DNA of 58,513 nt, filler included, from Sphacelaria rigidula (taxonomy: Eukaryota): the NCBI GenBank assembly GCA_964200075.2. It is 8 parts of 8 records of this genome, joined end to end, with 100 filler letters (N's around TTAATTAATTAA, not from the genome) between each part and the next. Parts side by side here need not be neighbours in the genome. Positions count along the whole stretch, not along the records: positions 29,310 to 36,535 come from CAXNAA020015867.1; 7 more parts are not named here. One strand, written 5' to 3'. Made by a program: the position numbers and the translations under genes. Positions 3,001 to 51,504 of this stretch are shown one piece after another; the first letter of the stretch is position 1, and each line of letters starts with the position of its first letter. A model generated the notes under the pieces. It was given only the letters and a program-made list of their open reading frames with translations. It ran no database searches and was not told where the DNA came from.

Positions 3001-3191
3001 AACGAAAAATGTACCCTTCACACGCGCAGCCATCTTCCGCCCCATTTCCCGGTGTTTTCTTCGCTCGTCTTCGATATTTTATTCTTGTTCTGACGCTGTT
3101 GTTATTGTCAACCATGACACGTGACTGCCATTTTTCATTTCCGTAACGGTTCGATCACAGAAAGTCTCTTGACTGCGTATTTTGCGCTCCG

Positions 3192-3194
<3 letters not shown>

Positions 3195-3231
<37 letters not shown>
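3195..3231. repeat. (GT)n microsatellite
   Basis: Uninterrupted GT run of about 18 units. Confidence 0.95.
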
Positions 3232-3232
<1 letters not shown>

Positions 3233-3338
3233 CGTGTTTTCCTTTGTTTACTGCCGTCCGCTTGTCCACTTTGTTTTCATGCTCATTTCACCCTTTGTGC
3301 GTGCTGGTGTGCCATGTGTCTGTGCGGGTATTCTGCAG

Positions 3339-4797
3339 AATGCTCGATATCCCGGCTGACGCCCGTAAGCTGCCGACCTCGCGTGAAATACCGCCATCGA
3401 CGAATGAGAAGATTGCCGTCGCCACCGCTACTCACCCCTCCCGCATCCACGTCGACGTCACGGTCTTCGGATGACTTGTCGGCGTCTACCTGCACAGGAG
3501 TTTCGTTAGCCGTAAAGTCGAATGGCGGGGTCGGTGGTGGTGACAGAGACGGCATAGAGGGATGGCTTCGCAGCATATGCCAAGGAGTATCATCTACGAT
3601 ATTGACAAGGTATTCTGCGCAACGCTGCGCAACGCTGCGCTACGCTGTCGGTTGAAGAAATCTCAAGAACTGTTCCTTTTTTGACAAGCATTCGTGAACG
3701 AATTAACTCTTGACATACCATCTTGCTCAGTAGAGATCATTCTCAAAGCGGTTCCCACATCTTTTGACGAGGATGCACCGGGCAAACTCTTCTCAAATGC
3801 TTGGCATGATGGACGTCCCCTTCTCTCTCTCTTTCTCTCTCTTATCTATACGCTGAGATAGTGAACATAACTGGTGGGAGGTGGGGGCGTTGTGGGACGG
3901 ATGACATAGCTGGATTGCTCTGACCCGCGGTATGCTGCAGGATCTTGCTACATTAGTTCATGTGGAGCACCGTTGAGCACATTCTTGGGCTAGCTTTTTC
4001 GTTGCGTCATCTGGATTCTGCGGTTGGAGGCCGCGCATGAAACAAGGAGCCGTGCTGTACGGAATTGGAGGCGTCGCAACGCCCCCCCTTTTCCCCCCGC
4101 CCCTCACCCCCACCCCTTCAGCTGCGTTGCACCTCTTGCCTCGTTTCTTCTCTTCCCTGTCTCCTTCTTTTGTCAAGCACCGAGATAATAAACCTACCGA
4201 TCTCTGCGTTTTTCTCGTTTTCGTCCCTGAACACTGAGTCACACGTCTCACCCTTACGTTATGTCTCCTGTTTTTTCTCTTGTTCTGTTCTTGTGCGTTC
4301 TCGCCGTCCCCGCCGTCGTGGTGGACCAATGATTCTTGTCTTGTAGGGAGCTGACTGGTGTCTTCGGTGGAGAGGGGGAGCAGGAGTATGAGAGGAGGGA
4401 GAGACTCAAACCGAGAGCCGCAGGACATCCCGCGGGTTCCAGGAGGTGATTGGTTTACTCGATCTGGTTCGATTCATCAACCGTATTTTCTTCTCTTGAG
4501 GCTGACGTCCTTCGTTGGGCGACTGACTTGGTCTGTTTTGGTCCGTTCACTGATCGTTTGGGCCTTTTTTTTTCGCATGGGTATTTAGAGAACAGTACGG
4601 GAGGGGAGCGTTCAGTTGATACCCCACGCGTCGTGGGATACTCGGCACTGCAACTACCTCGAGAAAATGTCGGGTGCCTGAGGTACTGTACCCTACACTG
4701 ACCACTCTCGATTTTGTGTTGCTTGTCATCATTTTCCTTGCTTTTTACGTACTCCAGGGTGCAGGTAGGTGGCGGTAATGGACGATGGCGGTGGTGA
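3339..4797 (+). CDS. Possible spliced hypothetical gene fragment (exons about 3339-3609, 4347-4445, 4758-4797)
   Basis: Pyrimidine-rich tracts ending in CAG/TAG acceptors, with AG|GT donors. The phases join (phase 2, phase 2) into ...GIEGWLRSICQGVSSTILTR-ELTGVFGGEGEQEYERRERLKP...-VQVGGGNGRWRW*. No recognisable domain. Confidence 0.3.
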
Positions 4798-7228
4798 CGG
4801 TGATTTTGGAACAGATTCGAAGCCTTAAGGATGCGACGGCGAATTTTTGCTGTGTGTACTGACGGTTTTGTGTCGGACGTCTAGGGTAGCGTTGTTTGGA
4901 ATAGTCGACCACTTTTGTTTGGATAAAGTTCATTTGTACTGAAATAGGTAACTTACTGGTTTTTAGTGCTGTCCATGAATAACCTGTGTATGTACATATG
5001 TGTATATATGTAAATATATATGATCGTACAGGCAAAGTCGAAGAGAGCGTCGAATCAAGAGGCGTGGATAAAGGGGTACGTGGTGAATCTGATGAAATGA
5101 TCCCTTGCTGTGAAGGAAGTTCAGGAGGCGAGGGCTGAGCAACTCGCATGCGCAGACACTAGCGGTAAGTCTCGATGCGAAATATATTGGATGGCTGTTC
5201 GGTCGACTACTTGATTGATCGGTTGAGTGATTGGGTTATGAGTAAGTGATCCTGCCGACTTCAGTCGTAGTGTTGTTGCAAAAACGTGTTTGCAGTCGCG
5301 TTTTGGTCGGTAGATTAACCGCGTTCAATGTTGTAACCGAGCCGTGGGCCGCGGTCGAGAGAGAGAGAGGGCAGATACGTAGTCGAGGCGAATGAAGCAA
5401 AGCACACCGCTGAAGAAAACACGGGTGCGGTATTGCTCGCACGGTACCGTACAGTAACATATTTCGCTATACTGCCCTACTTTATCCTCTGCAGTTACTG
5501 TGCTTTGTAGTACGACGTACGGCAGCACTAGGTGGTACATTACCCTGTACCGTGCAGCACTGTGCTAAGTTACAACGTCAACGTTTCGCACTCCCACAGG
5601 ATATTCCTTGCACACGCACGGCCTACTTATTCATCACGTGACTCCACACAGCATGCGAGTGCCTGTCACGAGCACGAATTGCAATACATGACACGATTGC
5701 ACATCATCAACATGGAAGCATGAAAACATGAAAACACGGATACGGCGAAACCTGCCGCATGTGAACCTCTCCCCCACAAGCCGCTGCCAGGACTAGACAG
5801 GTTCACAGTATCAGGTCACCAACAAGGCACCTCAGTAATTGAATAACTGGCCGATAGCACGGTTCTCCCTCTCGGAAGCTAGCTTGCACTACTGACACTG
5901 CACGGACCGGGCGTCAACTCTTCGCGTTCCGTTCACGTATTCTTTCCATCTGTTGTAGTAATGACAATGTGCTTCCTCTTGATGAGCCCGTGGGCTGGAG
6001 CCATCAATCAACGCATCTCTGCCCGTGTACATGTAACCCTAATCCTAAGGTATATGACATGGGGTGCAGACGCACGCATAAAAAAGCCTGCCCGTCGCCC
6101 CACCCTGTCTGTCGAAGGAGAGGTGGGTAGATGGATTGATCGTCGAGACGGCGTGCTCGTCCCGACGAAGGCGGCGGAGAGGCCAGCTCTTTGAGCGCCC
6201 GCTGATTGACACCTGAATCTGACAGCCATTTTCAAAAGCCACTTTCCAGAGTAAGTTCGGCGTTGATTCATCAGATGGGTATCTCCGGGCGGTGAAGGGA
6301 ATAGACCAGAACTATCACAGAGTAAAGGAAGGAAAATGCAGCAACTGATGCCCCCCCTACCCCCGCCCCTTACGCCCGCCGCCCTATCGTGTCATCAGTC
6401 GGTGTTCAGCTCGGTGCTGGAGGCCGCCCGGGAGGTGCCTCTTCTCCCAAGTAGTGCAAAATGATGCCAGCAGCTCTACCGGCCGCCGCGGCGGACGTGC
6501 ATGTTTCATAGGTTGCGGCATGCACCGTCTGGGTCGAACAGGTGGACTGTTGGGGTATAGGTCGCTGGTGGTGGGCGTCCCACCTCGTGTCGGTCGGTTT
6601 GTGGCGTGGTCGTAGAGCATGAAACGGAACAAGTCTTGCAAGACGATTTGGTATAGACTACATGTATCGGACCGCATCTTTCAGCAGTCGGCAGCTTCGA
6701 GTTGGGAAAGGTTTGGGGGTTTGGCTGCATGGTGAAGATTGATAGGCATCGGGTCAGTTGATGATGTGATACTGATACATGGACGGTCTAGAGCAATATG
6801 CGACCCCTGAACACACAACATGCACGAGCGTGAACATACACACGATTGAGAAGCTTCGTGCCGTCACGCGGACAACGTAGCGTTGCTTGCGTGGAACCTC
6901 GCTTGGTTGACCTGCGGACGAGGAAACAAGCCGGAACGGTAGCTGGAAATGGGATCTTTGGGCGGCGGGAGAGCTTGCCTGTAGAGGAAATCGAGGTTGT
7001 TCAGACTTGCTGCCTTCGTGGGTGATATACGTATTGTAGATCACCCAGGGTACTCCTCGAGGGAGGCGGGATTTACGTAGTAGAGGGGGAGAAGAAGGCT
7101 TGCTTCGGGCTTGGGATTTGTCGTCGCCATGGGTGATAATCTCGGTACATGACGCACAATATGCCTTGTGGCGGGCGGTTTTCACGTAGGCGGGGGGGGG
7201 GGGGGGGGGGAGCAAGGGAAGGGCTGTC

Positions 7229-7328
7229 NNNNNNNNNNNNNNNNNNNNNNNNNNNNNNNNNNNNNNNNNNNNTTAATTAATTAANNNNNNNNNNNNNNNN
7301 NNNNNNNNNNNNNNNNNNNNNNNNNNNN
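7229..7328. other. Artificial contig linker (N44-TTAATTAATTAA-N44). Others at 14556-14655, 21883-21982, 29210-29309, 36536-36635, 43862-43961 and 51188-51287
   Basis: Identical 100-bp spacer with stops in all six frames, recurring about every 7.33 kb. Confidence 0.98.
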
Positions 7329-12077: not shown

Positions 12078-14555
12078 ACATGGCCCTGACCTTGTTGGTG
12101 GTAAGGTGTCCGTTGATCCTGCCACCTTCACTATCCGCGTAGCATTACACTGCGGCCCTTACGCCACCGCGCGTGACAAGTGCGTCTCGTTGTTAGACAG
12201 CGGAAGTCCACAGACATTCATCACAGAATCCATGTGGAATCATATGAAGCAGACTAGCGCTGCTTCCGATGTCTGCGAAATCGCCACCCAACCTCGCGTT
12301 TGGGGCGGTTTCGGTGACTCCAATTCACCCTTGACGACACGAAAATCTGTTCGTCTTAGTGTGCAATTTTCCCACCCGATACACGTTCGGCTAGTCTCGC
12401 AGTCTGGGCTTACATCGTCCCTGACAGCACAGTGCATCATGCTCTCCTCCTTAGCAGAGACAGTTACATGCGGTTCGACCAACGCACATACTGCACCCTT
12501 CCACCATTATCGCCTAAGTCGGCGCCTCGTGGAGAACTCCAACTGGAACACTTTGGTACTTTCAATGGTGCCTTAGCCTACAAAAAGAATGAGCAGGCTA
12601 CCGGAGCGGCTTACCACCTTCGGTACACTGGCAGTTCTTGTGTCACCCTTTCCGATGAGCCTCAACTCTTAGAAGTTTCGCTTGTTCGCCGCAACGTTAT
12701 GCCTGCCCTCACCGGCCACTACCTTGCGGAATTACTGCCTAAAGTCGGTGCGCCCGCTGGCACTGAGCATTTTGTCTCGGACGGCGGCCAACTCCTGCCT
12801 CTCACAGGCCATGCTAATTTGGAACCTGGCGATGTCTTGGGCATCGCCGCGGCTCCTCTTATGCACATTCCTCTGGAAACTTGTGTAGCCGATCCTCCGG
12901 CGTCTGATCTCACGCCGCCGACTGCTGGTTTTGTTCAATGCGTCGATGATCCATACTTCAATCTCTCCGCCTCATCCCCGACTCAGATTTTTGCGGTGGA
13001 ACCCGACCGACCCCCTGCTGAACCCCCTGATGAAGTGCTTCAACATTTATCAGTCGATTCTCGAGAACATTTCTTGCAAATGTGGCACCAACTTCCACCT
13101 CATTTGCGTGCTGTCCATTTTGACCTACACGGTCCGGGCTGGGAGCCCGCCATCATTCAAGAGCTACAAGATGTTCTCCTGGAATATCAGGACAGATTTT
13201 CACGATCCAAGACGGATCTCGGGCATTGTAAAACATTGCCATTCGAGATAACACTGCAAGCTGGCGTTTCGCCAATCTCATCTCGACCATATCGCACGAA
13301 TCCCCTCCTCACCAAAAAAGTCAATGCTATTTTGGATGCCTACTTAGGAGCTGGTCTGATTCAACACTCGTCCTCGCCATGGGCCTCACCCCTCGTGGTC
13401 GTCCCCAAGAAAGATGGCAACATCTGCATCACCGCGACCTACAAACGGCTGAACCGCGTCACTGTCGTGGGAAAACTTCTCATACCTCGCATCGACGAAG
13501 TCTTCGACTCTTTCGGCGAAGGAAAAGTATTCAGCACTTTCGATCTGGCATCTGGATTTTTTCAAAATGCATTTCACCCCGATACAGTTCCCTTGACAGC
13601 GTTCTGTACATCTTCAGGGCTTTTTGAATGGCTTCGTATGCCGCAAGGCGCTGCCACCGCACCTGGCTGCTTTCAACGCTTCATGCAACGCGTTACTGAC
13701 GGTCTCGAGCATGTTATCATATATCTAGACGATGCTATCGCTTTTGATGCCTCCCCCAAGGCGCATGTTTGCACTCTACGGGAATTCCTCTCCCGCTTGC
13801 GTGCACACGACTTGAAATTGTCTCCATCCAAAGCTCGACTCGGAGCCACTGAACTGGATTTCTTGGGACACTCCATCTCTCCTGCTGGATTGCACCCAGA
13901 CACGAACAAGGTCAAAGCTATGACTGATATGCCCATGCCCACCAATATTTCGCAGCTTCGCTCGCTGTTAGGTGGACATTCATACTATCGCAAATGTTAG
14001 CCCAACTTGTCCAAGCGGATCCGGCCCATCACAGATTTACTGAAGAAAAGCGTCCCGCTTGTCTTCACTAAAGACATGGGAGCCACCGTCCGCGAACTGC
14101 TCAAAACACTGACCGAAAAACCGGTTCATTGATTTCCGGATTGGGATGCGGTACAAGACGGCTCACGTACTTTCCAACTACACACCGATGCTAGCACATT
14201 TGGGTTCGGCGCCGTTTTGAATCAGCCTCAACTGGATGGCTCTGTCCGACCTATTTTGTACATCAGCCGCGCAACCCTCCCAAACGAGGCAAACTGGAGT
14301 CCACTCGAACTCGAAGGTGGAGTCATAACTTGGGCTATTAAACGCCTTCGACAGTACTTGTTCCACGTGCCTTTCCACATCTATACAGATCACGGAGCTC
14401 TTGAACAACTCGCTAAGGTTGGAGAACGTAACCCCCGCGTACAACGGTGGCTGAAGTTCTTGACTGCCTACCAGTACACTGTTAAACACCGTCCGGGCAA
14501 AACCAACGGCAATGCTGACCTTTTTTTGCGATTGCCTCTACCTCCTACAGCGGTA
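12078..14555 (+). pseudogene. pol: pol (aspartic protease, reverse transcriptase, RNase H) with a frameshift and stops
   Basis: The DSG motif and the 'LLLSRD' protease C-terminal motif are in different frames (shift near 12375). There is an in-frame TAG at 13998-14000 and a TGA near 14130. The reading frame continues into RNase H (IYTDHGAL, RVQRWLKFLTAYQYTVKHRPGKTNGNAD). Confidence 0.9.
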
Positions 14556-15129
14556 NNNNNNNNNNNNNNNNNNNNNNNNNNNNNNNNNNNNNNNNNNNNT
14601 TAATTAATTAANNNNNNNNNNNNNNNNNNNNNNNNNNNNNNNNNNNNNNNNNNNNATTTGCCCTCATCCAACGATTTTCACCGTTTTTCGCGGAGGCGTT
14701 TAAAAGACTATTAAAAAAAAAAAAATCCCCCGGCGAAACACTGGCTTGTGGACAGAACGAATACCACGGTTTGCGTCCGTTGTCCCAATCATTACTTTCT
14801 TGCCAATCTGGCGGACGACCTGTACCGACTCTTAAGACCGAACTTCGAATTTGGAGTTGTTCCCCGCTCAGCGCCGGCTGCGCTCGAAGGTGTTGGCGGT
14901 TTTAGCGCAACCAGCATGATGAGTTTACAATGGGCCCACATGACCAAACGGTGTCCCGGAGTAGTGTAACTCACTGCGGCTATGGAGTCATGCCATCTTG
15001 AAGACTTTGGTCATTCACTTATCTGAGCACAGGAAAGCGCAAGGGATGGCGAGTTATACAAGGATGAAAGGTAGGTGGTGGTCCGCGTGACCTTGAGCAC
15101 CTACTACAGATCGGCTGAAAAGCAACAGG

Positions 15130-19205: not shown

Positions 19206-21982
19206 GAAAAATGCCCCAGAGATCATTAGCGGTGGATCCTCGAGAGGATTTTTGTCCAGTTTTTCCCAGAGGCACCCTCAGTAAAATTACGTGCTCCAGA
19301 GCACCATTTTCTTGTTCCTCTAGAGAGATTCAGATCTCATGGGTTACTGGAGCATCAAGTGTCCTCTAGAGGATTCGTGTACTGTCCAGTAGAGGGTATT
19401 TTATCCTCAGAGGGTCATTTGCCCTCGAGAGGGCAAAAAAGGCGGTAGAGGGATTTCAGGGAGGAGCCGATTGACCGCGCGTGTATGTGCCAAGCAAAAG
19501 GAAGAAGAATAAGTTCGTGTACATTGGCCTTTCTCCTGTGTGACCCCGGCTGATGCGCCCACATATACCGGAAGGTGTAGACTGGCGTCCAGAATAGATG
19601 GGACGACATCACACACATAAGTGTCAGCCGAAGTCCTTGTTTTGTTGCCTCTAAGAATGTTCTGATAGCCCGTGGTTGGGCAAGTGCCAATGTTTTTTTT
19701 TTCTATAATCGATCCACTGAGAAACAAATATGTTCACCATAATAGTTTTCGCCCCATGTTTGTAGACGTCCTGCGGTCCCCGCGGCCTCGTCATTGGCTG
19801 CTTTGACACACGCTGTCTGTGGCTCTCAGTGGCCCGGCGGTCGATGCACCTTGGAACGTCGCACAACGATTTTGTAGTCGCCCCAAAGCCAGCGTTCAAA
19901 AACCCTTCGAATCTAAGACCCATGACGACCGAAATAGTTAAACATATCCTACAAGCAGGCGGCCATGGCTAGGCGTTTTGCGTGTATCCTAGCGCCACGG
20001 GTCGTGAGACCGTTCTCCGACACACAGCGGGCACACGTGGGAGGAGCAAATTGGCTGATCCTCACGCGGGTGACCCCTGGCATATTTGACCCGCATTTTG
20101 AAGCGTCCCTAGGATTTGGTACGTAATGAATGATTTGAGCGGCGTACATACAGCGCGAATCAGGTTGTGGTTGCACCCGCTTTCGCATCGTGGACCAGTT
20201 GCAAACCCGCCTATACTCTGGAACATCTGTTTTGCCGCCCGGTTCACGCTCTAAGCCTGTTGTTCGACGTGCCGGTAACCTGGCGACGTTCCACAAAACG
20301 GATATGGTGTACCAGCCGCTATTCGTTCAAACAAGCTGATGCAACCCGCATGTTTTGTTTCCATTTTTTCTGCTCCTTCATTTTCTTGAAGGAGTCTGTC
20401 AGTTTTGGTTTTCTTGGGTACGTCTATCACGCGACCACGGCTGGACCCATGGGTGGTCAGTTAAAGTGCGACAATCAATCAATCAATCGATCGATCCATT
20501 AGCAAGTGGGTCGGACTGCCCGAATCGCCCTTCCTGCTCTCGGTCTCTAGCAAGGATCTCCCCTCCCCCGTAGAAGTAACTGTATTTCGCAACGGCTATG
20601 CTTGTGTAATGTTTGTCGGTGAAGTGCGCGTACGCCGCGCTTACGCCAACAGGTACCCCCTGCATTCTGACAGCTGTCCGATCAGGGTAATACCTGCTGT
20701 TTTGCTGCCTGACGTAAAATTGGTCCGTGAAAATGATCGTAAAAGTTGTTGAAAGGTTTGATATCGACTTGGTTCGGGCCAAAATTCATTATTTGATTGA
20801 TTTGACTCACTGATTGATTGTCGCACGAAAGGTCAACACGGGAGTTTTTTTTTCCCTTTTTTTGTACGTCCATAGTACTCCACCTTCCTTCTGCGGTGCT
20901 TGCCTTTTTTTTTAATCGCTAGAGGGGTTCGGCAGTTCCTCTCTCTCGTCGACCATTGAGTCGAATTTTATGCCAGGTGCTATTTCACCGTTAGCATTTT
21001 GTCCACAATCAGCCACGTACACGCTGGATGCGCCAGACGCTAGTGGCTGCCTCTTAGCCGTCAATACTTTAGTCTTTCCGACGTACGGGCACAAGATATC
21101 GTCACCGTCCTGGAAATTTCGGCTCTGCATCAGCACCAATGTGACAAACCGCTGCAAATTTTTCAACCATCGCTCGTACCCAATGTAAATTAGCCCCCAG
21201 GTCGGACACATAGAAGTATGCAAGTTTGAACTTCCGCATCATTATTCTTTATGGGCACACCTACACTACCATAACCTGCTATCGTCACCGACCGATCGGC
21301 TGCCTCCATAACTACACCAGTGCCGTACTTCTGATAGCACGTGCTCTCCTCCTGACGGTGTCCTGTCTGTGGTGGCTCCACTGTACTGTCCAACCCTCGT
21401 TATCCCCAGCTACCGGTGCTGGGCCTCTCTATCTATATTAACATACAAGAAGCGTATGCCTTTCCCTCTGTTATGCTGTTCAGTGCGACGTATCTGGGCC
21501 ATGTTTCCCAGGCTATTAGCTAAATTCAAACAGTATACTTATTTTCACTGCGCCCGTTTTTTACACACATTTCTGGCACACTCGTTTTGGGTACTTGGCA
21601 GCCATATGGCCGAACTCGTTACACGTGGAAACACTGGTCACCATCAGACCCTGTACCTTATTTCCGAGCCCAGTTGCAGTGGTTGCCGAACCTCCAACTG
21701 ACCTATCCGAGTCTGTACAGTTCCCGATGCCCGCGCCCCTCCTTGGGGGCGGATTTTCAACATTAACTACGAGGGCACGCGGTTGTGATCCGCTCCCATC
21801 CCCCATTCCCCCCCCCCCGTCTTGAAAGGGATACGTGGTCAATGGTCAAACAACTAAGGCAAGCAACACATGAGTACGCCCCNNNNNNNNNNNNNNNNNN
21901 NNNNNNNNNNNNNNNNNNNNNNNNNNTTAATTAATTAANNNNNNNNNNNNNNNNNNNNNNNNNNNNNNNNNNNNNNNNNNNN

Positions 21983-29209: not shown

Positions 29210-29309
29210 NNNNNNNNNNNNNNNNNNNNNNNNNNNNNNNNNNNNNNNNNNNNTTAATTAATTAANNNNNNNNNNNNNNNNNNNNNNNNNNNNNNNNNNN
29301 NNNNNNNNN

Positions 29310-29404: not shown

Positions 29405-30825
29405 CCGCGTAGACAGTAAATTACTACCTGGTATGTAGCGGGAAATGTCAGAGTTTGTCGAGTTCAGTCCCCCAATGAGTATACGAGCAGCAGGATGACA
29501 CCTGCTGAAAGTAACAGGTAAAGGACTTGTACACACGATGGTGATATATACCCATGGTCATGAGAGGTCTGTGTGTTTACCTACCATTAACAGCCTGGAC
29601 TAGTTCTTGAGGTTCAAGATTTGGGTGAGGTTCAACTGACCATCGTTTTCACACCACTCTTCCCGGAGCAGAACTTCAATCGCTTCAACTTTCTGGGGTT
29701 TTTTTCCCTTGGCATCCCGCGCAATGTTGCGTGCATCGATATGAATGTCAAGTCGAAAATTCAGCGCCCGACTTCTTGAAATACCCACAGCCGCGCCCGC
29801 GAACATGAAAATATCAGTTAGCTGGCTTAGCTCGTAGCGTTTGCGTATCGAGCCCCCGGCCCCTCTCGAGTTGCCCAGGATTAATAACAATCGCAGTCTC
29901 CTTCGAAAGTACGTGGCGGCGGCTCGATGATAGCCCTGCGCCTGGTTGGCGAGGTGACGGAATATTAGGGGTCTCCGTTGTGATTCTGATGGTCATGTGG
30001 GGCTCAATTGAGACATTTAATAATTACTCTCGAAACTATACCTCAACAGGCTTCAATAGTCCCAAGACAAAAAGCCCCAAAGTCCAAAATTGGGTGTATC
30101 TCGACTTATTCTCGTGTAGAATACAATTCACCTGTTTTTGCACTAGGATCACCTGCGCTCCCACTTTTTTAACAAACCCGACAATGGCGTCATCACTGAA
30201 ACCGTTACACCCAAACAGACACCCGTAATCATGCAGACGTACAGGGCAGCGGAAGTATTCATTTTTGCGTTTCAACCTCAAGATAGCGGACAAAATGTTA
30301 GATATGATGTGAATTACGTCGTGTTTTGTTGGTTGTGTTATCACTGCACAGTCACGTGGCTGCACTCGATTTGTGTCAGTGGATGTTCATGGAACAGGTT
30401 TGCAACTTCTTGTTCATATGTATTAATGGGAAAGCGGTATTTCTCGAGGTAGTCGTCGTCGTCAGGCCGAGGGCCTGAACACGCAGATTCAGCCAGCTCT
30501 CACGACCATGAGAAACAATTGTGCGGTTACTGCATTCCTGCACGGCGACGAGCCGAAAGCAGCTGGGAAACTAGATACATCATGCAAATCAGGCTAGAAA
30601 ACACTAGAAAACACGACGAAAAAAACATGTTGCAAAATACCAATATGTTGCCGGAGGCCAAACTCAAGACACTCCGTCATGACACGATGATCCACACACA
30701 CAATTTGGCGGTCTACACCTTCCCTAGCTACCCTTTGAACGAAGCAGAGCAAGACAATCTAGGAAACACTAAGCTGGTTTCTACCGCAGAGATTCGTACG
30801 AGATATATCGAAACCCTATCACTAC

Positions 30826-31259
30826 CGGGTTTTACAAATTGGGGATGGATATTTTTTTGAGGATGAGAACCCGGAGAATTGATATCTTCGCATCCACACT
30901 GAATCTTCTAATTATAGTTCAACTTCTTCACCTACTGGTAGCTATTGATCAGTACTGCACGCCACAAAAATTTGGATCCTGATAACCCACATTTTTGGGG
31001 TCCTAGGTGAAGAAACAATTTCGGGGAATTTAGAAAATCCGATCAGATCATCCAAATTCCCCGAATTTTGTTCTTCACTAAGAGCCTCAACATGTCGGTT
31101 ATCAGGATCCAAATTTGTATGGCGTGCAGTAGTTGTCAATTGCTACCAGTAGGTGAAGAAATGGGACTATAATTAGAATATGCTGTGTGGATGCGAAGAT
31201 ATCAATTCTCCGGGTTCTCATCCTCGATGAAAAATTCATCCCCAATGTGTAACATCCCG
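30826..31259. mobile_element. Fold-back/MITE-like palindromic element, family A, copy 2
   Basis: Full-length imperfect palindrome homologous to 7875-8327. Confidence 0.8.
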
Positions 31260-31315
31260 TGTTTATCCGCAAATATCAGCCGGCAAAAAAGGCGTGCATG
31301 GATCCCCTCATCAAG

Positions 31316-33388
31316 CTACCTCTCTTGCTGGTGAGATGAGACCGCGGACATGAAACGATAAGGAGCTGTTACACCCAATTCTAACTTTACGTGGGCTTTC
31401 TCTTCTGCAGACATCACATCATTTCCCGCTGCCACATCGAAAACCGGTTCAACAGGCACCATCCTACGTGGCCGCTTTGTGTTCCTTCCACTGCTAATGC
31501 TGCTATCAATGGTGCAGCTCCTGTTACTGGTGTTGCTGGAGCCACTAATGCCCATGCTGTCACAACTGCTGGATTGCGCAGCAGCCACTCCCCTGCTTGT
31601 TCTCGTCTCATGAAAAACATGGGCTGGGGCAAGAGTCGTCTCCATTTCCATTTTCATGCGCGTCTCTACCCCACCTAGAGAAACCTCATGGGCTGCCGCT
31701 GGGATGGCGGGATGTCCCGCAGCGGGGAGGGTGACCGTACAACTCGCGCCCCGTTGTCCAGGACGCATGGCACCCGACATGCAACGAGAATCAGCGTTAC
31801 GACCAATATCTCTCGTGTTGGCACTGGTATCCGATGGATGGCTGTCTTTCCTGCAACCTTTAGCGATACCGCCACTAGTCTCTGCAACGGCCCAGTGACT
31901 CTTCAGGTAGACGTGTCTTGCTGCGTCTGACGCCAGAGTAGGGTGATGTGCATCGTGATGGCAGACATGCTCGTGCTCCCGCACCCGCTTGGCACAACGC
32001 TGCGAGGTGGATTCATCGAGCGTCATGAAGGTCATCCCTGCGCCGGCGTGTTTGGCACAGAACTCCGCCTTCATACTACCGGTTGCACCGATCGATGCTT
32101 GTTTGGAGCAACCCCGCTTCTCGCACTGGTTGTTTACCGCGTCCACCATGGCCGCGCGGGCGTGCGTGGCGCAGAACTCCGCCTTCCTGCCACCGGTCGC
32201 ACCAAGCGAGGGTTGTTTAGAGCAGCCCCCCTTGCCGCACTGGTTGTGTATCACATCATCCATGCCCGCCCCGGCGTTTGTCGCGCGGAACTCGGTCTTC
32301 TTGCCGCCGGCTGCACCGAACGACGGCTGTTTGGAGCTGCCGTCCCTCCCGCATTGCTTGCTCTCCATATCGACCATACCCACGAGGGCGCGTGTTGCGC
32401 AGAACTCTGCCTTTCGTCCACCGACTGCACCGAAAGATGCTAGTGTGGAGCAGCCCTCCTTGCCGCATCGCTTGCTTGTAACATTGACCATGCCTGCCCG
32501 GGTGTGTTTGGCGCAGAACTCTGCCTTTCTACCATCGCCTGCACCAAACGATGCTCGTGTCGAGCAGCCGTTCTTGCCGCACGAGTCATTTCTCACGTCG
32601 ACCATACCTGTCGGGGCGTGTTTGGCGCAGAACTCCGCCCTCCTACCACCGGCTGCACCGAACGATGCTAGTCTGGAGCAGCCCTCATTGCCGCATCGCT
32701 TACGTGCATTGACCACGCCCGCCGGGGCGTGTTCGGCGCAGAACTCCGCCTTCCTACCACTAGCTGCGCCGAACGATGCTAGCGTGGAGCAACCCTCCTT
32801 GCCGCATCGCTTGCTTGTAACATTGACCATGCCTGCTGGGGCGTGTTTGACGCAGAACTCCCTCTTCCGTCCACCGACTGCACCGAAAGATGCTACTGTG
32901 GAGCAGCCCTCCTTGCCGCATCGCTTGCTTGCAACATTGACCATGCTTGCCCGGGCGTGTTTGGCGCAGAACTCCGCCTTTCTACCATCGGCAGCACCAA
33001 ACGATGCTCGTGTCGAGCAGCTATCCTTGCCGCATCGCTTGCTTGCAACATTGACCATGCCTGCCCGGGCGTGTTTGGCGCAGAACTCCGCCTTTCTACC
33101 ACCGACTGCACCGAACGATGCTAGTGTGGAGCAGCCCTCATTGCCGCATCGCTTGTGTGATACATTGACCATGCCTACCGGGGAGTGTTTGGCGCAGAAC
33201 TCCCTCTTCCGTCCACCGGCTGGACCGAACGCTGCTCGTGTGAAGCAGCCCTCCTTGCCGCATCGCTTGCTTGCAACGTTGATCATGCCCGCCGGGGCGT
33301 GTTTGGCGCAGAACTCCACCTTGCTGTTACCCGCTACGCCATATGATGCTCTCGTGTTGCAGCCCGTGTGTGTGCATCCAAAAGGCAT
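31316..33388 (-). CDS. EsV-1-7 cysteine-rich repeat protein (12 x ~38-aa C-x4-C-x16-C-x2-H units plus low-complexity C-terminus)
   Basis: Long ORF, open to 33532, with a probable ATG at 33388 (MPFGCTHTGC...). Repeats such as CGKEGCSTLASFGAVGGRKAEFCAKHARAGMVNVASKR match the EsV-1-7 motif known from brown algae (e.g. IMMEDIATE UPRIGHT) and Ectocarpus virus EsV-1. Confidence 0.92.
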   Translation of the reverse strand: MPFGCTHTGCNTRASYGVAGNSKVEFCAKHAPAGMINVASKRCGKEGCFTRAAFGPAGGRKREFCAKHSPVGMVNVSHKRCGNEGCSTLASFGAVGGRKAEFCAKHARAGMVNVASKRCGKDSCSTRASFGAADGRKAEFCAKHARASMVNVASKRCGKEGCSTVASFGAVGGRKREFCVKHAPAGMVNVTSKRCGKEGCSTLASFGAASGRKAEFCAEHAPAGVVNARKRCGNEGCSRLASFGAAGGRRAEFCAKHAPTGMVDVRNDSCGKNGCSTRASFGAGDGRKAEFCAKHTRAGMVNVTSKRCGKEGCSTLASFGAVGGRKAEFCATRALVGMVDMESKQCGRDGSSKQPSFGAAGGKKTEFRATNAGAGMDDVIHNQCGKGGCSKQPSLGATGGRKAEFCATHARAAMVDAVNNQCEKRGCSKQASIGATGSMKAEFCAKHAGAGMTFMTLDESTSQRCAKRVREHEHVCHHDAHHPTLASDAARHVYLKSHWAVAETSGGIAKGCRKDSHPSDTSANTRDIGRNADSRCMSGAMRPGQRGASCTVTLPAAGHPAIPAAAHEVSLGGVETRMKMEMETTLAPAHVFHETRTSRGVAAAQSSSCDSMGISGSSNTSNRSCTIDSSISSGRNTKRPRRMVPVEPVFDVAAGNDVMSAEEKAHVKLELGVTAPYRFMSAVSSHQQER

Positions 33389-34292
33389 ACTCCTCACGAC
33401 TGTCGTGGAGAAATGGGTCGAGGCCGCGGAAGTCCCGCTGCCGCTATTCCACTCGGCGACGCCACCCACCCGTGCCCTGGAACCAGCTGACCAATCCAGG
33501 AGCAGCCTGCACCAAACAAAACGCAAAGGCAACCCAAGGCCCTTCTCAAGTAAAAGATGGATGAATCATTATAGAATTTGGGCGCAATTAGGGACGTGGA
33601 TAGGAGTGGACTGACAGATTAATGTAGAGTCAACAGAGGAAAGGGATAGCTAATGCAGCATGGCTACAGGGGGGATGCCATTTTCTCTGTAAGAAGCATA
33701 TACTGACATTGCTACACGGTGGCGAATGAGCAAAGGGAGGTGGGGATGTTGATATTGGAGATTCCCAAAAAACATTAGCGCCGAGGTCTTCCGCATGATT
33801 CCCTTGCCCATGGTATGAGTTCAACTCTTGGACAACACGCGACAGGGGTTTTCGGCGAGTGATACGGAAAGTGAACGTGCGGCGCTGTGCGTGTACAGGG
33901 ACTACGATAGTTTGGTCCATGCGTTCATTTTCCATGTGGCTCACTCGAGAAGCACAGCGCTTAGTATACATGGAAACGGAACTCCCCAGGGACCGCAGTG
34001 GTGAAGTATGGATGCACAAGACACGACAGGCCTGGCCATCTATTCGCCGGTGAGGATGGACATACCCTGGCGTCAGCACAATCGAGCGCGCGATTTTGCA
34101 AGGAGTGTACATGGTGGAAGTGCGAGCAATCGACGCCCTTCCTATCTGGGAGACAGCTGAGGTGACAGTCAGGGTTACATAATTTCAACCGAAAATGAGT
34201 ACATAGCGTTTCCAGGCCTGAGAGTGAATAAGTGCGAGAGGGAACCAAACTCGTAGGGCTAAGCGACGACGTATTGGACATTGTATGCCGCC

Positions 34293-34590
34293 GCGCCCCG
34301 GTGGTGTAATGGTCCGACTGCTGCCATTAGGGTGGAGAGAACGAGGGTTCGACTCCTGATGCGTTGGGTTTTTCTTCTAGTATTTGATTTCCACCGTGGA
34401 GAGCGTGAGAACGTGAGTAAACAAAGTAGTCGACTGGGTTCGTTTGACGTGAGTTGACGCGGTGCGGGAGTGGTGATCCAATACACGAGACCGAAATGCA
34501 AGGCGTGTACCGGGGGAGGGATGGGTTGATCCCTTGAGACCAAGGCTCATCTCGAGGAAGGGGAAGGGTTCAAAGTGCGCCAAAATGAAC
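34293..34590 (+). mobile_element. tRNA-derived SINE family 2, second copy at 50712-51010
   Basis: Head GCCCCGGTGGTGTAATGG...GGGTTCGACTCC (A and B boxes). The ~230-bp body ending GAGGAAGGGGARGGGTTCAAAGTGCG is shared by both copies. Confidence 0.75.
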
Positions 34591-35394
34591 AACATGATAA
34601 TAACATCTCACTGCAGACATGACCTCAGCACCATTTGCAACCTCTGGGACTGCTGAAATGTCAAGCAGGAGAATGTGCAAAATGATAGGTTATATTGCTT
34701 GCCAGACAGACCCGATACAGCGATCACGAGGAGACTGGACGGAGAGAAAAAAGCGTCATAACAAAACGAGTCGAGCTGCGATGAGAAAAATGCACGCGTA
34801 AGTTGATACTGTGAGAAGGAGGCAAGCGATGAATATATGTGAAAAACACTTCGCGTCCGAAGGTGAACTTCGAAAAAAAACTATAGAAATAAGGAAGCAT
34901 CGACATCACGCCGCAAACGGCACAACATACACCATGGTGTATATACAAGGATAGCTCGTAGGTACTTAAATGGCAGGTTGAATGGGGGGTAGACGGAGAG
35001 TTTCAGCAAGAGAATACAAACCAAATAGGGCTTTCGCTCCTCGGAATTTCTCCCTTGGTTCCGCATAAAGGTGCGCATTCTAGTAACTTGCTGTACAGTA
35101 CCGCCGAACTGCAAGATCTTGAGTCCCATTCATCATTAAAACCGTAGAGCTCATCTTTGGAACCGTACCACGCTGGGTCGTACCGTGCCACAGACTGCAT
35201 AGCGCATACCACGTCATTCCGCGTAGTGGTAACAAATATCGTATAATCGAAATAACATGAAACTCCGGTTCCCGACCACGACAACAGCACAAAAATATGT
35301 GGCAAATGAATTATGTGTGGCGCAAAGGTGTAAATGACACATCGAGACGTGCTTCGATTTCTTCCAACAGTCATCACTTGTTTTCCTTCAATAG

Positions 35395-36328: not shown

Positions 36329-38349
36329 ATTCGCCTTATTGGGTGTCGAGCATTAAAAAGAGAATGAGAACCCAGAAAAACGGCAACATTCATCCATTCG
36401 TCGACTGATGTCTTCTAGGAGTACTTCCCCGAGCTAGTCGAGGGGTGGCTAGAGTGGAAGCTCTTCGCCGTCTACTCATAATCATGCATGCCATAGTCAC
36501 AAGAACATTTACTTCGCATCCCTACAAAGACGGGANNNNNNNNNNNNNNNNNNNNNNNNNNNNNNNNNNNNNNNNNNNNTTAATTAATTAANNNNNNNNN
36601 NNNNNNNNNNNNNNNNNNNNNNNNNNNNNNNNNNNCAAAAGGGGTGGGTGGCCTATAGTTAAACGAATAAGCACCCCAAAAAAAAATTCCCCCCCCCCCC
36701 CCCCCCAAAAAAAAAGCCCAAAAGTGTCACGAAAAAAAATGTTCATACAGCGCCTGATGATCTTTGGGTTCAGGCTGCATGAAGCGCCTTATATTGGCGA
36801 CATTGGCGAGAATGAACCCAAGCGTGAGAATTCCCAGCCGCTGGTTGTGCTCGGCTTCTTCCATTTCGATTTACGTGAAGGTTTTGCCTCCCCAAACCAG
36901 ACACCTCGGACGGGAACATGAATGAATGCTATCCCGTTGACGGGGCATATGTGAAGGCTTGACGGACAACCCATCGCAATCAGACGTGAACCTGAGGATC
37001 GCATTGCCCTGCGAACCAAAGGCATACAAGTCGCTTTATAGCTTCTCCCATCAGCTAAACACGATGATGTGCGTGATCTTCCTCAAACATGTTGAGAATT
37101 AAGTGAGATATGATGATGTTATTGCGTGAGACACTCGCACGGTACACGCACACGAACGGTCAGCGACGGCACGTTTCAGGTTGTGATTTCACACGCATGC
37201 GACCGCCTCTCCTCCATCTTTGGACGGATTTCCACCGTATAAAGGCCTTCATGAGCTAATAGTAGTTCTGTAAGTTCTATATGCTTCCCATACCGGTACC
37301 CGATAGTCAAGTGAGATCTATACGAAGTGTTCACCCTCACAGTATATGAATCAGGATTCGAAAGGCACATGCGTACATATGTCGCAGTGCATGTACCGCG
37401 CAGATTCTGGGGATCATATATACATATATATATATAATCAAAAAGAGTCTAATATAGAAAATGAGGTTGAACATTAACGTGGGGTTAACTTCGAAACAGT
37501 GCTTTCCCCGAGCCGAAGTCACGATAAATGGCCTCGTATGGACGACGTCATACCCCTCGACCCCCCTGAGACTATTCTTGAGTGTTTCCGGTCGTTCATT
37601 CCTCCAAAAGAATGTATGTGCGCAAAAGCGCCTTTTTGCTTCAATTTCGGGGTGACATAACAAGGGACGCGTTTCAGCCCGAAAATGGTGCTTGAGCACG
37701 TCCGTGCCCCTTGCAATCTCACGTACAGCCTCCTGATCACTTAATCCAAAAGAGAAGGTCGCATATACGCTGTATTATTGAGCTCATGACCTCGGACCCA
37801 ATGTATGTGCTGGCCGTAGCTCACACTAGAAGGAATGTAATGCGTAGTACTTACTCTACACGTTTCTAAAATCTGAAACGTGCTGGCATGATCTCAGATT
37901 TCTACACATCACGTGTATCCTTTCCGACGTCAGCTGGTACTACCAGCACATTGGGGCTTGGGGGCCGGTATGATGCGCCCAGGAAAAATTATGTGCGAGA
38001 GGTCTGGAATTAACAAATGGGAATATATTTTGTGAAGTTGACAAATTGGGGTATATTTTGTGGAACTCACGCATGGGAGTATAATTTTGGAATTGACAAT
38101 TTGGGGGTGGGGTATATTTTCGCCAGCGCTCCACTGTCAGGTCACCGATGAAGGGATGATTCCACAGTCAAAATCCCGGCAGAATTCACAGTAAAACGGT
38201 CCACAGTTTGAACGTTCAAAAATTTGTTCCGGGATTTTGTCTGCTGACGGTGCCGCGAGTTTTCTGGCGGATGGTTTTGGTAGGCGTAGGCGGACGCTGG
38301 AAGGGCATGATCAGCGCTCGGAACAGCTTTTTAAATAGCAAACGAGGGT

Positions 38350-43341: not shown

Positions 43342-43998
43342 GTACGTCGTGCGGCCTTGCCACTTTGGTGCCCGCTCGAACAATAAAGAGTTAAACAAAT
43401 ATTGCCTCCAACAGTCCACTATGGGTTTTATCGTGAGCTTTTTCGAGTACACGGGTGATGTAAAAGCGGACAAATGACGTCGAGCTGCATCGCGTTGTAC
43501 TGTTGTGTCGTGTCGTGTTGACCCGCACTGAATAGCAGAAGTCGTCGTTAACCAGGTTATCAAGTCGAGATCAAAAGTGTTCTCCAAAGTGATGCCGCGG
43601 TAGCCTCCCCTTCAAACCAGCCCCAAAGCTTTCACGATGAAAATGGCCATATACCCCTATGATATCTGGTTTTAGACTGCATGAAGCGCCTCATATGGGC
43701 GACATTGATTGGCGAAAACAATCCCAAGCGTGGGAGTCCTCAGCTGCTCGGTATGCTCGACCTTTGTCGTTTTGATTCACACGTAGATATTGCCTTAACT
43801 CTGCTATTTTTCGAGGGGGAGGCGGGGGGGGGGGGGGGTATACGGTTTTTTTTTTATTTTGNNNNNNNNNNNNNNNNNNNNNNNNNNNNNNNNNNNNNNN
43901 NNNNNTTAATTAATTAANNNNNNNNNNNNNNNNNNNNNNNNNNNNNNNNNNNNNNNNNNNNATAGCACCGACAGTGTGACGGAGGGGGGCGGGGGGGG

Positions 43999-51179: not shown

Positions 51180-51504
51180 AAAGTTAGNNNNNNNNNNNNN
51201 NNNNNNNNNNNNNNNNNNNNNNNNNNNNNNNTTAATTAATTAANNNNNNNNNNNNNNNNNNNNNNNNNNNNNNNNNNNNNNNNNNNNAAAGGGATTATCC
51301 CCTTCGTTAAGACAGGTCCTTATGGGGGTGGATGAAGGCCTTTCCGACCAAAGCTCCGTTCACCACAAAAATTGAAATGAACGCGGAGGGATATTGAAGA
51401 CGTGTTGAAGGCGTCCTGGACTGTTCGGACTTCTGCCGAACCTCTGCCGAGCATGACACATGCTCCATCCCAAGTTATATGGGTTTAGTATGCTACAGCT
51501 GTAC

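Follow-up and report, generated by a model that had tools for sequence, protein, structure and literature searches.

Does a tandem array of EsV-1-7 units in the brown alga Sphacelaria rigidula read nucleic acid unit by unit, with a few variable residues setting the preference of each unit? The question was raised by one gene in a window of 58,513 nucleotides (the whole stretch of DNA analysed, eight parts of assembly GCA_964200075.2 joined end to end; all coordinates count along it), for which the original prediction was a programmable, TALE- or zinc-finger-like recognition code. We know of no ligand for EsV-1-7 proteins.

An intact gene for an EsV-1-7 protein

The gene and its repeat region have the following layout.
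31316..33388, minus strand: EsV-1-7 gene in a single uninterrupted frame (ATG 33386-33388, 690 codons, TAG stop 31316-31318)
32015..33376, minus strand: EsV-1-7 array of 12 units, each a C-x4-C-x16-C-x2-H core followed by a conserved A-x-x-G-M-V-N/D-V-x-x-K-R linker
32240..32467, minus strand: units 9 and 10, whose zinc ligands are lost (from the unit listing)

The open reading frame (31319-33388, minus strand, 690 aa by ORF list and translation) lies in a stop-to-stop frame of 31316-33565; its first ATG is at 33388, and no in-frame ATG was found upstream of it in the open frame reaching 33565. Twelve tandem CCCH zinc-type units begin at residue 5 of the product and are followed by a tail of ~225 aa, and homologues align with it over repeats and tail alike. 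The locus is an intact, single-frame brown-alga gene for a 690-aa EsV-1-7 family protein. Pfam PF19114 (EsV_1_7_cys) matches the whole protein at E 2.7e-146 (475.5 bits against a cut-off of 25, 11 stretches) and the repeat region alone at E 1.3e-148 (482.9 bits, 12 stretches). There are 147 homologues at E<=1e-3, the best being S. rigidula proteins of ~50% identity, and an Ectocarpus protein named EsV-1-7 is among them; structure matches include EsV-1-7 (Q8QNQ2) and EsV-1-115 of the Ectocarpus virus. No identical protein was found among the matches in the protein collection searched. The Pfam, homologue and structure matches support the family identity as originally proposed, and the PF19114 match together with the Tandem Repeats Finder result (period 114, 11.3 copies, 79% matches, 32033-33322) confirms a tandem array of 12 units of ~38 aa. 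An additional higher period of 453 nt was reported in the array. Unit coordinates were taken from a profile built on the array's own units; 11 of the 12 are 38 aa long and unit 6 is 37 aa, and no further EsV-1-7 units were found elsewhere in the 58.5-kb window.

All 12 units had been described as C-x4-C-x16-C-x2-H. The full ligand set is intact in 10 of them, and the description fails in units 9 (H26 to R) and 10 (C6 to S, C23 to R and H26 to N), where ligands are substituted; in the family at large, C6, C23 and H26 are each 98% conserved (485 units).

To judge from these matches, the gene is one more paralog in a known, greatly expanded family. It shares with EsV-1-7 proteins (PF19114 / IPR043822; EsV-1 gene 7) the ligand spacing, the F/Y-G and E-F-C-x-x-H motifs and the G-M-V-N/D-V linker, as well as the tandem arrangement, the occurrence in brown algae and giant viruses and the lack of any other Pfam domain; a 2026 preprint reports the same features for Ectocarpus (10.64898/2026.04.27.720984). 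What sets it apart is the number of units, 12 starting at residue 5, and the conserved tail common to a mainly Sphacelaria subfamily. The EsV-1-7 family is one of the largest gene-family expansions of brown algae: 2018 proteins have been catalogued, up to 335 in one species (10.1101/2024.02.19.579948); these include the developmental regulator IMM (IMMEDIATE UPRIGHT), described there as an N-terminal unique domain with five repeats. We considered an IMM orthologue and rejected it: compared with IMM by description, the present protein has 12 units starting at residue 5 and its non-repeat part at the C terminus, and it is therefore a paralog.

The gene is flanked by high-copy repeats and lies close to an LTR retroelement. 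A provirus context was also considered and set aside, since only two of 24 long ORFs had a Pfam match, both to retroelement RT/RNase H. Contigs of runs X1-X3, guessed to be RNA, hold 33288-33508 exactly, a part of the tail (bin 31503-31669) and repeats; they have no cover at 30000-30667, 31336-31502, 31670-32003 and 33841-34174, and such contig holes prove nothing. Contigs of run X5 cover all 30 bins. Four runs carry the RNA label by guess only, so that the contig support for transcription is weak. We found no intron-like joints with credible ends inside the gene, and the joints that did appear fall between repeat units and look like repeat mis-joins.

Variable residues in the array and in the family

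The original prediction placed a two-residue code on a well-conserved scaffold. Pairwise identity between units is 39-84% in protein and 54-92% in DNA, four of the 38 positions are invariant and three or more residue types occur at 26, so the scaffold is not well conserved in the TALE sense; leaving out positions 8, 9, 15 and 16, its identity is 63% on average. M31 is kept in 11 of the 12 units, and units 10-12 are the most diverged. The dipeptide series before A/P-S-F had been read exactly for all 12 units (TR, TR, TL, TR, TV, TL, RL, TR, TL, KQ, KQ, KQ). Its codon states are single-nucleotide neighbours (CGA/CTA/GTA/CAA and ACA/AGA/AAA), and only the pairs 4/8 and 2/5 group with support in the unit tree; module shuffling, once suggested for the out-of-order recurrence of unit types, is thus unnecessary and we reject it. 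Positions 8 and 9 together hold 8.2% of the total entropy of the array, and position 8 ranks 15th of 38 in variability. The second variable site, G-A-[AVG]-[GDS]-G, is present in a slightly wider form, G-A-[AVGT]-[GDS]-G, as T is also found. Averaged over the 66 unit pairs, dN/dS is 0.44; in the closest unit pairs it is 0.6-1.3, values resting on few changes.

For the family we used 485 unique units from the 120 listed homologues, in which position 9 is the x after [KT] in C-x4-C-x-[KT]-x-[PA]-S-[FY]-G. Within the arrays of 75 homologous proteins, the mean pairwise difference at position 9 is 0.81, against at most 0.63 at other core positions (paired Wilcoxon p<=2e-6 against each of nine core positions, which is anti-conservative because the proteins are related); linker positions 35 and 36 are as variable (0.75 and 0.76). 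Acidic residues (D+E) occupy position 9 in 3 of the 485 units and the other ten high-entropy positions in 16-198, and R, K, H, Q, N or Y stands there in 314 (65%). In the near-identical units of the giant-virus locus L006, position 9 is again the most variable, at 2.13 bits. Position 8 behaves otherwise: it is K in 49% and T in 30% of units, its within-array divergence is 0.48 (19th) and its entropy ranks 20 of 38. The proposed hypervariable site finds support at position 9, which tops the core positions and all but excludes acidic residues, but not at position 8; and a two-residue code on a near-invariant scaffold is not supported, given the 26 variable positions of 38 and linker positions 35/36 that match position 9.

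Ten positions besides position 9 surpass 3 bits family-wide. We also took 22 pairs of closely related proteins and compared 60 positionally matched unit pairs, which are not independent of one another. The residue at position 9 differs in 28% of the unit pairs, position 28 in 33%, positions 3 and 5 in 30% and position 19 in 29%, with position 8 differing in just 8%. Since position 9 is neither unusually conserved nor unusually quick to change, a simple absence of constraint accounts for its variability equally well. Other parts of the linker are strongly conserved (M31 93%, G30 82% and V34 77% of the 485 units). In the main texts covered by our literature search we found no per-position signature of this kind for the EsV-1-7 repeat. 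From the alternation of conserved and variable residues along the strand, position 9 is probably exposed, and it is a plausible contact and specificity residue.

Tail, charge and predicted fold

The region behind the repeats holds four features.
31319..32014, minus strand: non-repeat C-terminal tail, conserved in a subfamily (phmmer and alignment)
31646..31657, minus strand: MKME, a psi-K-x-E motif, with R-M-K-x-E-x-E as majority consensus of the tail alignment
31463..31480, minus strand: basic patch TKRPRR, which fits the monopartite NLS consensus K-[KR]-x-[KR]
31379..31390, minus strand: VKLE, a psi-K-x-E motif inside a conserved D-V-K-L-E-L-x-V-S block, with K202 at least 90% conserved

With the final 224 aa as query and 1.84 billion representatives as target, phmmer returned 27 proteins at E<=1e-3, 17 of them at E<=1e-10; the better matches are 40-57% identical, and six of the ten checked by species are S. 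rigidula proteins. By these matches the conserved tail marks a lineage-specific subfamily that consists mostly of S. rigidula proteins. It had no Pfam match at E<=10 and no usable match in the ESM Atlas. The KRxRR patch and both psi-KxE motifs are conserved among the 27 relatives, and in an alignment of 20 tail sequences (19 of the 27 relatives included) every sequence has R175, and K172 and R173 are each kept in at least 90%. Two psi-K-x-E motifs were observed in the tail against 0.089 expected (2000 shuffles, P 0.002). All three short motifs noted at the outset are found, conserved and not due to chance, and the K-R-P-R-R patch has the classical NLS pattern, which makes the protein a candidate nuclear protein.

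The repeat region is very basic (net charge +40, pI 9.6), and family units carry a mean charge of +2.65, positive in 87% of 485. Some relatives keep company with DNA enzymes. An Ectocarpus Tc1/mariner transposase bears an N-terminal EsV-1-7 domain (PMC12477816), and among 22 viral structure matches UniProt gives the name 'Endonuclease' to four and 'DNA primase' to one. Nine giant-virus array loci were found in viral contigs by a degenerate family motif (an alignment-based pattern scan of these contigs gave 76 matches, of which none was confirmed), and no enzyme domain was found in the six giant-virus arrays examined; the endonuclease and primase fusions thus rest on BFVD names only. Our search for longer fused forms of EsV-1-7 proteins found one protein, with EsV-1-7 alone. 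Considering the basic surface, the conserved KRxRR patch and the occurrence of the repeat beside DNA enzymes in related proteins, we regard a nuclear, nucleic-acid-binding role as plausible.

AlphaFold 2 modelled units 1-9 with pLDDT 80-90 and a two-unit model with 78.5; pLDDT falls below 50 at residues 345-353, 383-406 and 409-461, i.e., part of unit 10 and units 11-12. The array-level pTM is only 0.42, which leaves a fixed geometry between units as a prediction. The predicted module is mostly beta, with a helix of at most three residues, so any contact residue would lie on a strand and not on a recognition helix. With neither model did Foldseek find a PDB structure at E<=1e-3, and it listed rows at E>1 for the nsp13 zinc-binding domain, PZP, B-box and PHD; a wide VIA-align search gave a single row, a RING domain (Z 2.1), and a sequence search of solved structures gave only a chance S100 row (E 0.35). 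As solved structures show no resemblance to the unit, we infer its fold class from the ligand pattern and the DSSP strings only.

Comparison with known repeat systems is also informative. TALE units are helical and contain no metal, and apart from residues 12/13 they hardly differ from one another. The present array is like TALE repeats in its length, in the size of its tandem units (34-38 aa) and in a position that varies from unit to unit; it departs from them in its zinc-type units, in their 39-84% identity and 26 variable positions, and in that only one of the two flagged residues is prominent. In polydactyl C2H2 arrays the inter-module linker is highly conserved, and these arrays also share tandem zinc modules and a few variable positions favouring R/Q/H/K; they are the closest functional parallel to the way the array might work, although the ligands here are CCCH with C-x4-C-x16-C-x2-H spacing in a mostly beta module, and no C2H2 zinc finger was matched in sequence or structure. 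The zf-primase finger (PF09329, Mcm10/primase type) is a DNA-binding CCCH finger. The repeat region sums to 30.9 bits against its cut-off of 28.8 (profile positions 24-46), but with 0 significant stretches, and the whole protein scores 26.4 bits, under the cut-off; this similarity may be merely a shared Cys/His pattern. Some homologues and viral L006 also score over the same units with the 24-position model of plant Zf_WRKY19 (PF24906; L006 83 bits and homologue P0053 36 bits, summed), but all such matches have 0 significant stretches and the present protein has no match even at E<=10. A literature search found nothing on the function of the plant repeat.

Possible ligands and competing readings

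We consider the best explanation, with a probability of about 0.55, to be a nuclear polyanion-binding zinc-finger array, most likely for DNA, with a binding surface that includes position 9. Each intact unit would form a small knuckle-plus-hairpin module folded about a single zinc ion, adjacent units would be fixed to one another by the highly conserved linker G-M-V-N/D-V, and the conserved KRxRR patch would direct the protein to the nucleus, where the very basic array may bind its polyanion. The dipeptide pattern would have come from point mutation and a few unit duplications, and the C-terminal units are possibly decaying.

Three other explanations were weighed. An unlikely one is a protein-interaction scaffold, comparable to LIM, B-box, PHD and RING-type modules, whose partners would be acidic proteins or chromatin factors and whose variable positions would tune the choice of partner. 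Variation across many surface positions and the conserved short linear motifs of the tail are in its favour, as are the structure searches, whose rows are all for protein-binding or mixed zinc modules; none of these rows is significant, however. Also against it, the net positive charge per unit is strong, and the presence of the repeat on a transposase, as on viral proteins that bear the names endonuclease and primase, speaks for DNA rather than protein. The programmable code first proposed, under which every unit would recognise a single base or short step of DNA or RNA, with its specificity determined by the pair before A/P-S-F in the manner of TALE RVDs or C2H2 helix positions, is by analogy conceivable and in our judgement quite improbable. 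What survives of it is the variability of position 9, the most within-array-variable core residue in the 75 proteins and viral L006, its lack of D/E and preference for R, Q, H, K and Y, a linker conserved as in polydactyl C2H2 arrays, and a long, regular, very basic array. The TALE form itself is not supported: position 8 is not hypervariable, the dipeptide accounts for 8% of the entropy, units are 39-84% identical, three or more residue types occur at 26 of the 38 positions, entropy is above 3 bits at ten positions besides position 9, the dipeptide states are single-step codon neighbours, and matched units keep position 9 no better than other free sites.

The most doubtful is that the gene is a decaying or function-poor copy in a fast birth-and-death family, the whole array being nonfunctional and its variable residues drift in a redundant paralog. 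Zinc ligands are missing from two of the 12 units, compared with a loss of ~2% per ligand in family units, units 10-12 are both most diverged and poorly modelled, dN/dS in the closest unit pairs is 0.6-1.3 on few changes, and the setting among high-copy repeats near an LTR retroelement and the lack of an identical protein among the matches would also fit. Against it, the 690-codon frame is intact, the tail past the degenerate units retains near-invariant residues, the mean dN/dS is 0.44, and, weakly, stretches unique to the gene turn up in contigs of the three runs with the guessed RNA label.

A bolder form of nucleic-acid recognition, to which we give little credence, is that EsV-1-7 arrays are a beta-strand-based modular DNA/RNA reader with position 9 as the per-unit specificity residue. 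Position 9 would then act beside the conserved aromatic residue at position 22 (F/Y) and basic residues at 8, 18 and 19, the conserved linker would set a fixed register, and the present 12-unit protein would read a long composite site. If true, this would amount to a novel type of programmable zinc-finger scaffold and would offer a mechanism for IMM and ~2000 brown-alga paralogs. The signature, i.e., one core position most variable between units, no acidic residues, R/Q/H/K/Y favoured, a basic module and a fixed linker, sharpens the vague statement that the repeat 'may be a zinc finger' into a specific prediction, namely that position 9 sets nucleic-acid preference. It speaks against the DNA reading in particular that the basic charge and a probably exposed variable residue would be equally compatible with an acidic protein or RNA as ligand.

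The EsV-1-7 gene and its place in the family

The EsV-1-7 repeats lie in one long frame, which is laid out as follows:

33565 to 31316, minus strand: open frame, first ATG at 33388, 690 codons, TAG stop
33376 to 32015, minus strand: array of 12 EsV-1-7 units
32014 to 31319, minus strand: C-terminal tail

Tandem Repeats Finder detects a period of 114 nt (11.3 copies, 79% matches, at 32033-33322) and a higher period of 453 nt. In translation the array reads as 12 units with the pattern C-x4-C-x16-C-x2-H, all 38 aa long except a single one of 37 aa, and the full protein matches Pfam EsV_1_7_cys (PF19114) at E 2.7e-146 in 11 stretches, which become 12 when the query is the repeat region alone; the 12-unit array of the original prediction is borne out by both translation and PF19114. 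The translation also contains, as had been claimed, the dipeptide series TR, TR, TL, TR, TV, TL, RL, TR, TL, KQ, KQ, KQ before A/P-S-F (unit positions 8 and 9), the second variable site in G-A-x-x-G (positions 15/16), and the tail motifs TKRPRR, MKME, and VKLE. Ligand losses had been overlooked: unit 9 has no histidine and unit 10 lacks three of the four ligands. The scaffold, taken to be well conserved, is far from uniform, with pairwise identities between units of 39-84% in protein and 54-92% in DNA. No further EsV-1-7 units were found elsewhere in the 58.5-kb window.

Homology searching returned 147 proteins at E≤1e-3 among 7999 scored candidates, none of them identical. Unnamed proteins from Sphacelaria rigidula score best (46-55% identity), followed by proteins of Ectocarpus, Pylaiella, Scytosiphon, Ascophyllum, and Laminaria, one of which bears the name EsV-1-7. 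Publications already describe the family, its occurrence in tandem gene clusters, its link to viruses, and the member IMMEDIATE UPRIGHT (IMM), and 10.1101/2024.02.19.579948 puts the expansion at 2018 proteins. IMM, as described there, has a unique N-terminal domain followed by five repeats, whereas the present protein has 12 repeats from residue 5 and then a C-terminal tail. The gene is a new paralog and an ordinary member of the EsV-1-7 family.

Variation within the array and position 9 across the family

The dipeptide had been proposed as part of a possible programmable, TALE- or zinc-finger-like code on a well-conserved scaffold. A two-residue code of the TALE type is not supported by the array itself, in which positions 8 and 9 together hold 8.2% of the entropy, scaffold identity averages 63% when positions 8, 9, 15, and 16 are left out, and 26 of the 38 unit positions show at least three residue types, only four being invariant. 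The entropy ranking runs 35, 4, 36, 9, 28, 15, 38, and so on, placing position 9 fourth and position 8 fifteenth; non-synonymous differences are scattered across at least 12 codons, and the mean dN/dS between units is 0.44. The seemingly discrete states of the dipeptide arise because the codons at position 9 (CGA, CTA, GTA, CAA/CAG, AGA) and at position 8 (ACA/ACG, AGA, AAA) are all single-step neighbours. The unit tree supports only the pairs 4/8 (0.955) and 2/5 (0.915) plus, more weakly, the KQ trio, which has T25, D33, and Q38 in common as well; the three TL units scatter over different, weakly resolved clades. Point mutation and a few unit duplications are sufficient to account for the codons and the tree, and the module shuffling suggested earlier is therefore not needed.

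For the family we collected 693 unit matches from 120 listed homologs, of which 493 were near-complete and 485 unique. Over these 485 units entropy peaks at position 9 (3.58 bits), with ten further positions above 3.0 bits; position 8 (K 49%, T 30%) ranks 20th at 2.19 bits. Among units of the same protein (75 proteins with at least four units), the mean difference is 0.81 at position 9, 0.76 at 36, 0.75 at 35, and at most 0.63 at all others. Paired Wilcoxon comparisons of position 9 gave p≤2e-6 against each of nine variable core positions, 0.02 against 35, and 0.09 against 36, values which overstate significance since the proteins are related. Of the per-position variability claimed for the dipeptide, then, the half concerning position 9 stands, as the most variable core site between units family-wide, and the half concerning position 8 does not.

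At position 9, 314 of the 485 units carry R, K, H, Q, N, or Y and only three an acidic residue, compared with 16 to 198 acidic units at the other high-entropy positions. Against a functional code, position 9 changes between positionally matched units of closely related proteins (60 non-independent unit pairs from 22 protein pairs) at a rate of 28%, like the free sites 28 (33%), 3 and 5 (30%), and 19 (29%), with low values at positions 8 (8%), 35 (13%), and 36 (12%). Position 9 therefore behaves like a residue that is exposed and under weak constraint but at which acidic side chains are disallowed. The pattern fits a polyanion-facing contact residue, and it also fits a residue that sits on a basic surface and is simply unconstrained. 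We consider position 9 a real family-level signal and a candidate contact residue, deserving a bench test. No per-position signature or code for EsV-1-7 repeats was found in the main text of the papers searched.

Predicted structure, putative ligand, and tail

AlphaFold2 with 70 homologs gave a mean pLDDT of 73.1 and a pTM of 0.42, with pLDDT about 80-90 for units 1-9 and below 50 for most of units 10-12; a two-unit model scored 78.5. In the DSSP assignment, unit positions 9, 12-13, 22, and 32-33 form short strands or bridges, and a three-residue helix comes after C-x2-H. Conserved positions 8, 10, and 12 alternate with variable 7, 9, and 11, which suggests a putative strand exposed on one side. 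No PDB structure was matched by Foldseek at E≤1e-3 or by a wide VIA-align search (best Z only 2.1), and a sequence search of solved structures reached only E 0.35. Predicted viral structures gave 22 matches at E≤1e-3, including Ectocarpus virus EsV-1-7 and EsV-1-115; four are called 'Endonuclease' and one 'DNA primase', which are database names only.

The repeat region has a net charge of +40 and a pI of 9.6; family units average +2.65 and are positive in 87% of cases, with conserved basic residues at positions 8, 18, 19, 37, and 38 and a strongly conserved linker. A primase zinc finger model is reached at 30.9 bits summed (cut-off 28.8), with zero individually significant stretches. Because of this basic charge, the conserved basic positions and linker, and the weak primase-finger score, DNA is our leading guess for the putative ligand. 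A predicted nuclear DNA-binding role is plausible.

Searching the tail alone (last 224 aa) against 1.84 billion representatives returned 27 proteins at E≤1e-3, 17 of them at E≤1e-10; six of ten looked up are from Sphacelaria rigidula. An alignment of 20 sequences keeps the blocks R-M-K-x-E-x-E, S-I-x-S-G-R-N-T-K-R-L-R-R, V-E-P-V-F-D-V-A-A-G-D-D-V, and D-V-K-L-E-L-x-V-S-A-P-S, with R175 invariant and I165, K172, R173, and K202 at least 90% conserved. Two psi-KxE motifs are observed where shuffles give 0.089 (P 0.002). Since the alignment keeps these blocks, chance does not account for the NLS-like patch or for either psi-KxE motif, which are, as judged from sequence, conserved features of a subfamily.

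Giant-virus arrays and genomic surroundings

Giant-virus arrays, retrieved by a degenerate motif, form an independent set in which the variability of position 9 recurs. In L006, a giant-virus MAG contig, the array consists of near-identical units, and no site varies more than position 9 (K, Q, R, H, Q, Q, I; 2.13 bits); in the viral loci L005, L009, and L002 position 9 ranks second, about fourth, and seventh. Change in the L006 array (2782-4122, plus strand) is almost confined to position 9, making it the most TALE-like example found; its summed score on the plant Zf_WRKY19 model is 83 bits. The viral contig L009 carries at 2908-5154 (plus strand) a 749-aa ORF in which 14 EsV-1-7 units are spaced exactly 111 nt apart, so long arrays are not peculiar to the alga. 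None of the six viral arrays retrieved has an enzyme domain.

The gene forms an island of high GC: the 32001-34000 bin reaches 0.579, the neighbouring bins 0.476 and 0.480, and the sequence on either side is at about 0.48-0.50. Pfam matches only two of the window's 24 long ORFs, both of them remains of a retroelement at 12360-14603 (plus strand): an RVT_1 reverse transcriptase ORF at 12360-14000 (E 3.9e-22) and an RT-linked RNase H ORF at 14133-14603 (E 2.7e-29), with overlapping GC-rich ORFs upstream from about 10032. With these as the sole matches among the 24 ORFs, no sign of a giant-virus insert was seen. On either side of the gene, at about 30835-31335 and 34175-34675, reads and contigs reveal very high-copy repeats (summed contig depth in sequencing run X5 of about 22,000 and 298,000 vs about 28-50 in unique sequence), and loose contig ends are numerous at 34282-34288; these repeats are probably small transposable elements. 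An antisense stop-free frame (31959-33614, plus strand, 551 aa), itself repetitive, spans the whole array and is most simply explained as a side effect of the codon composition of the repeat rather than as a second gene. Fourteen runs of 44 N (616 N in total), in pairs 12 bases apart with a period of about 7,327 bases, lie at 7229-7328, 14556-14655, 21883-21982, 29210-29309, 36536-36635, 43862-43961, and 51188-51287; they leave the gene untouched, and their regular spacing looks like a masking or scaffolding artefact, not biology.
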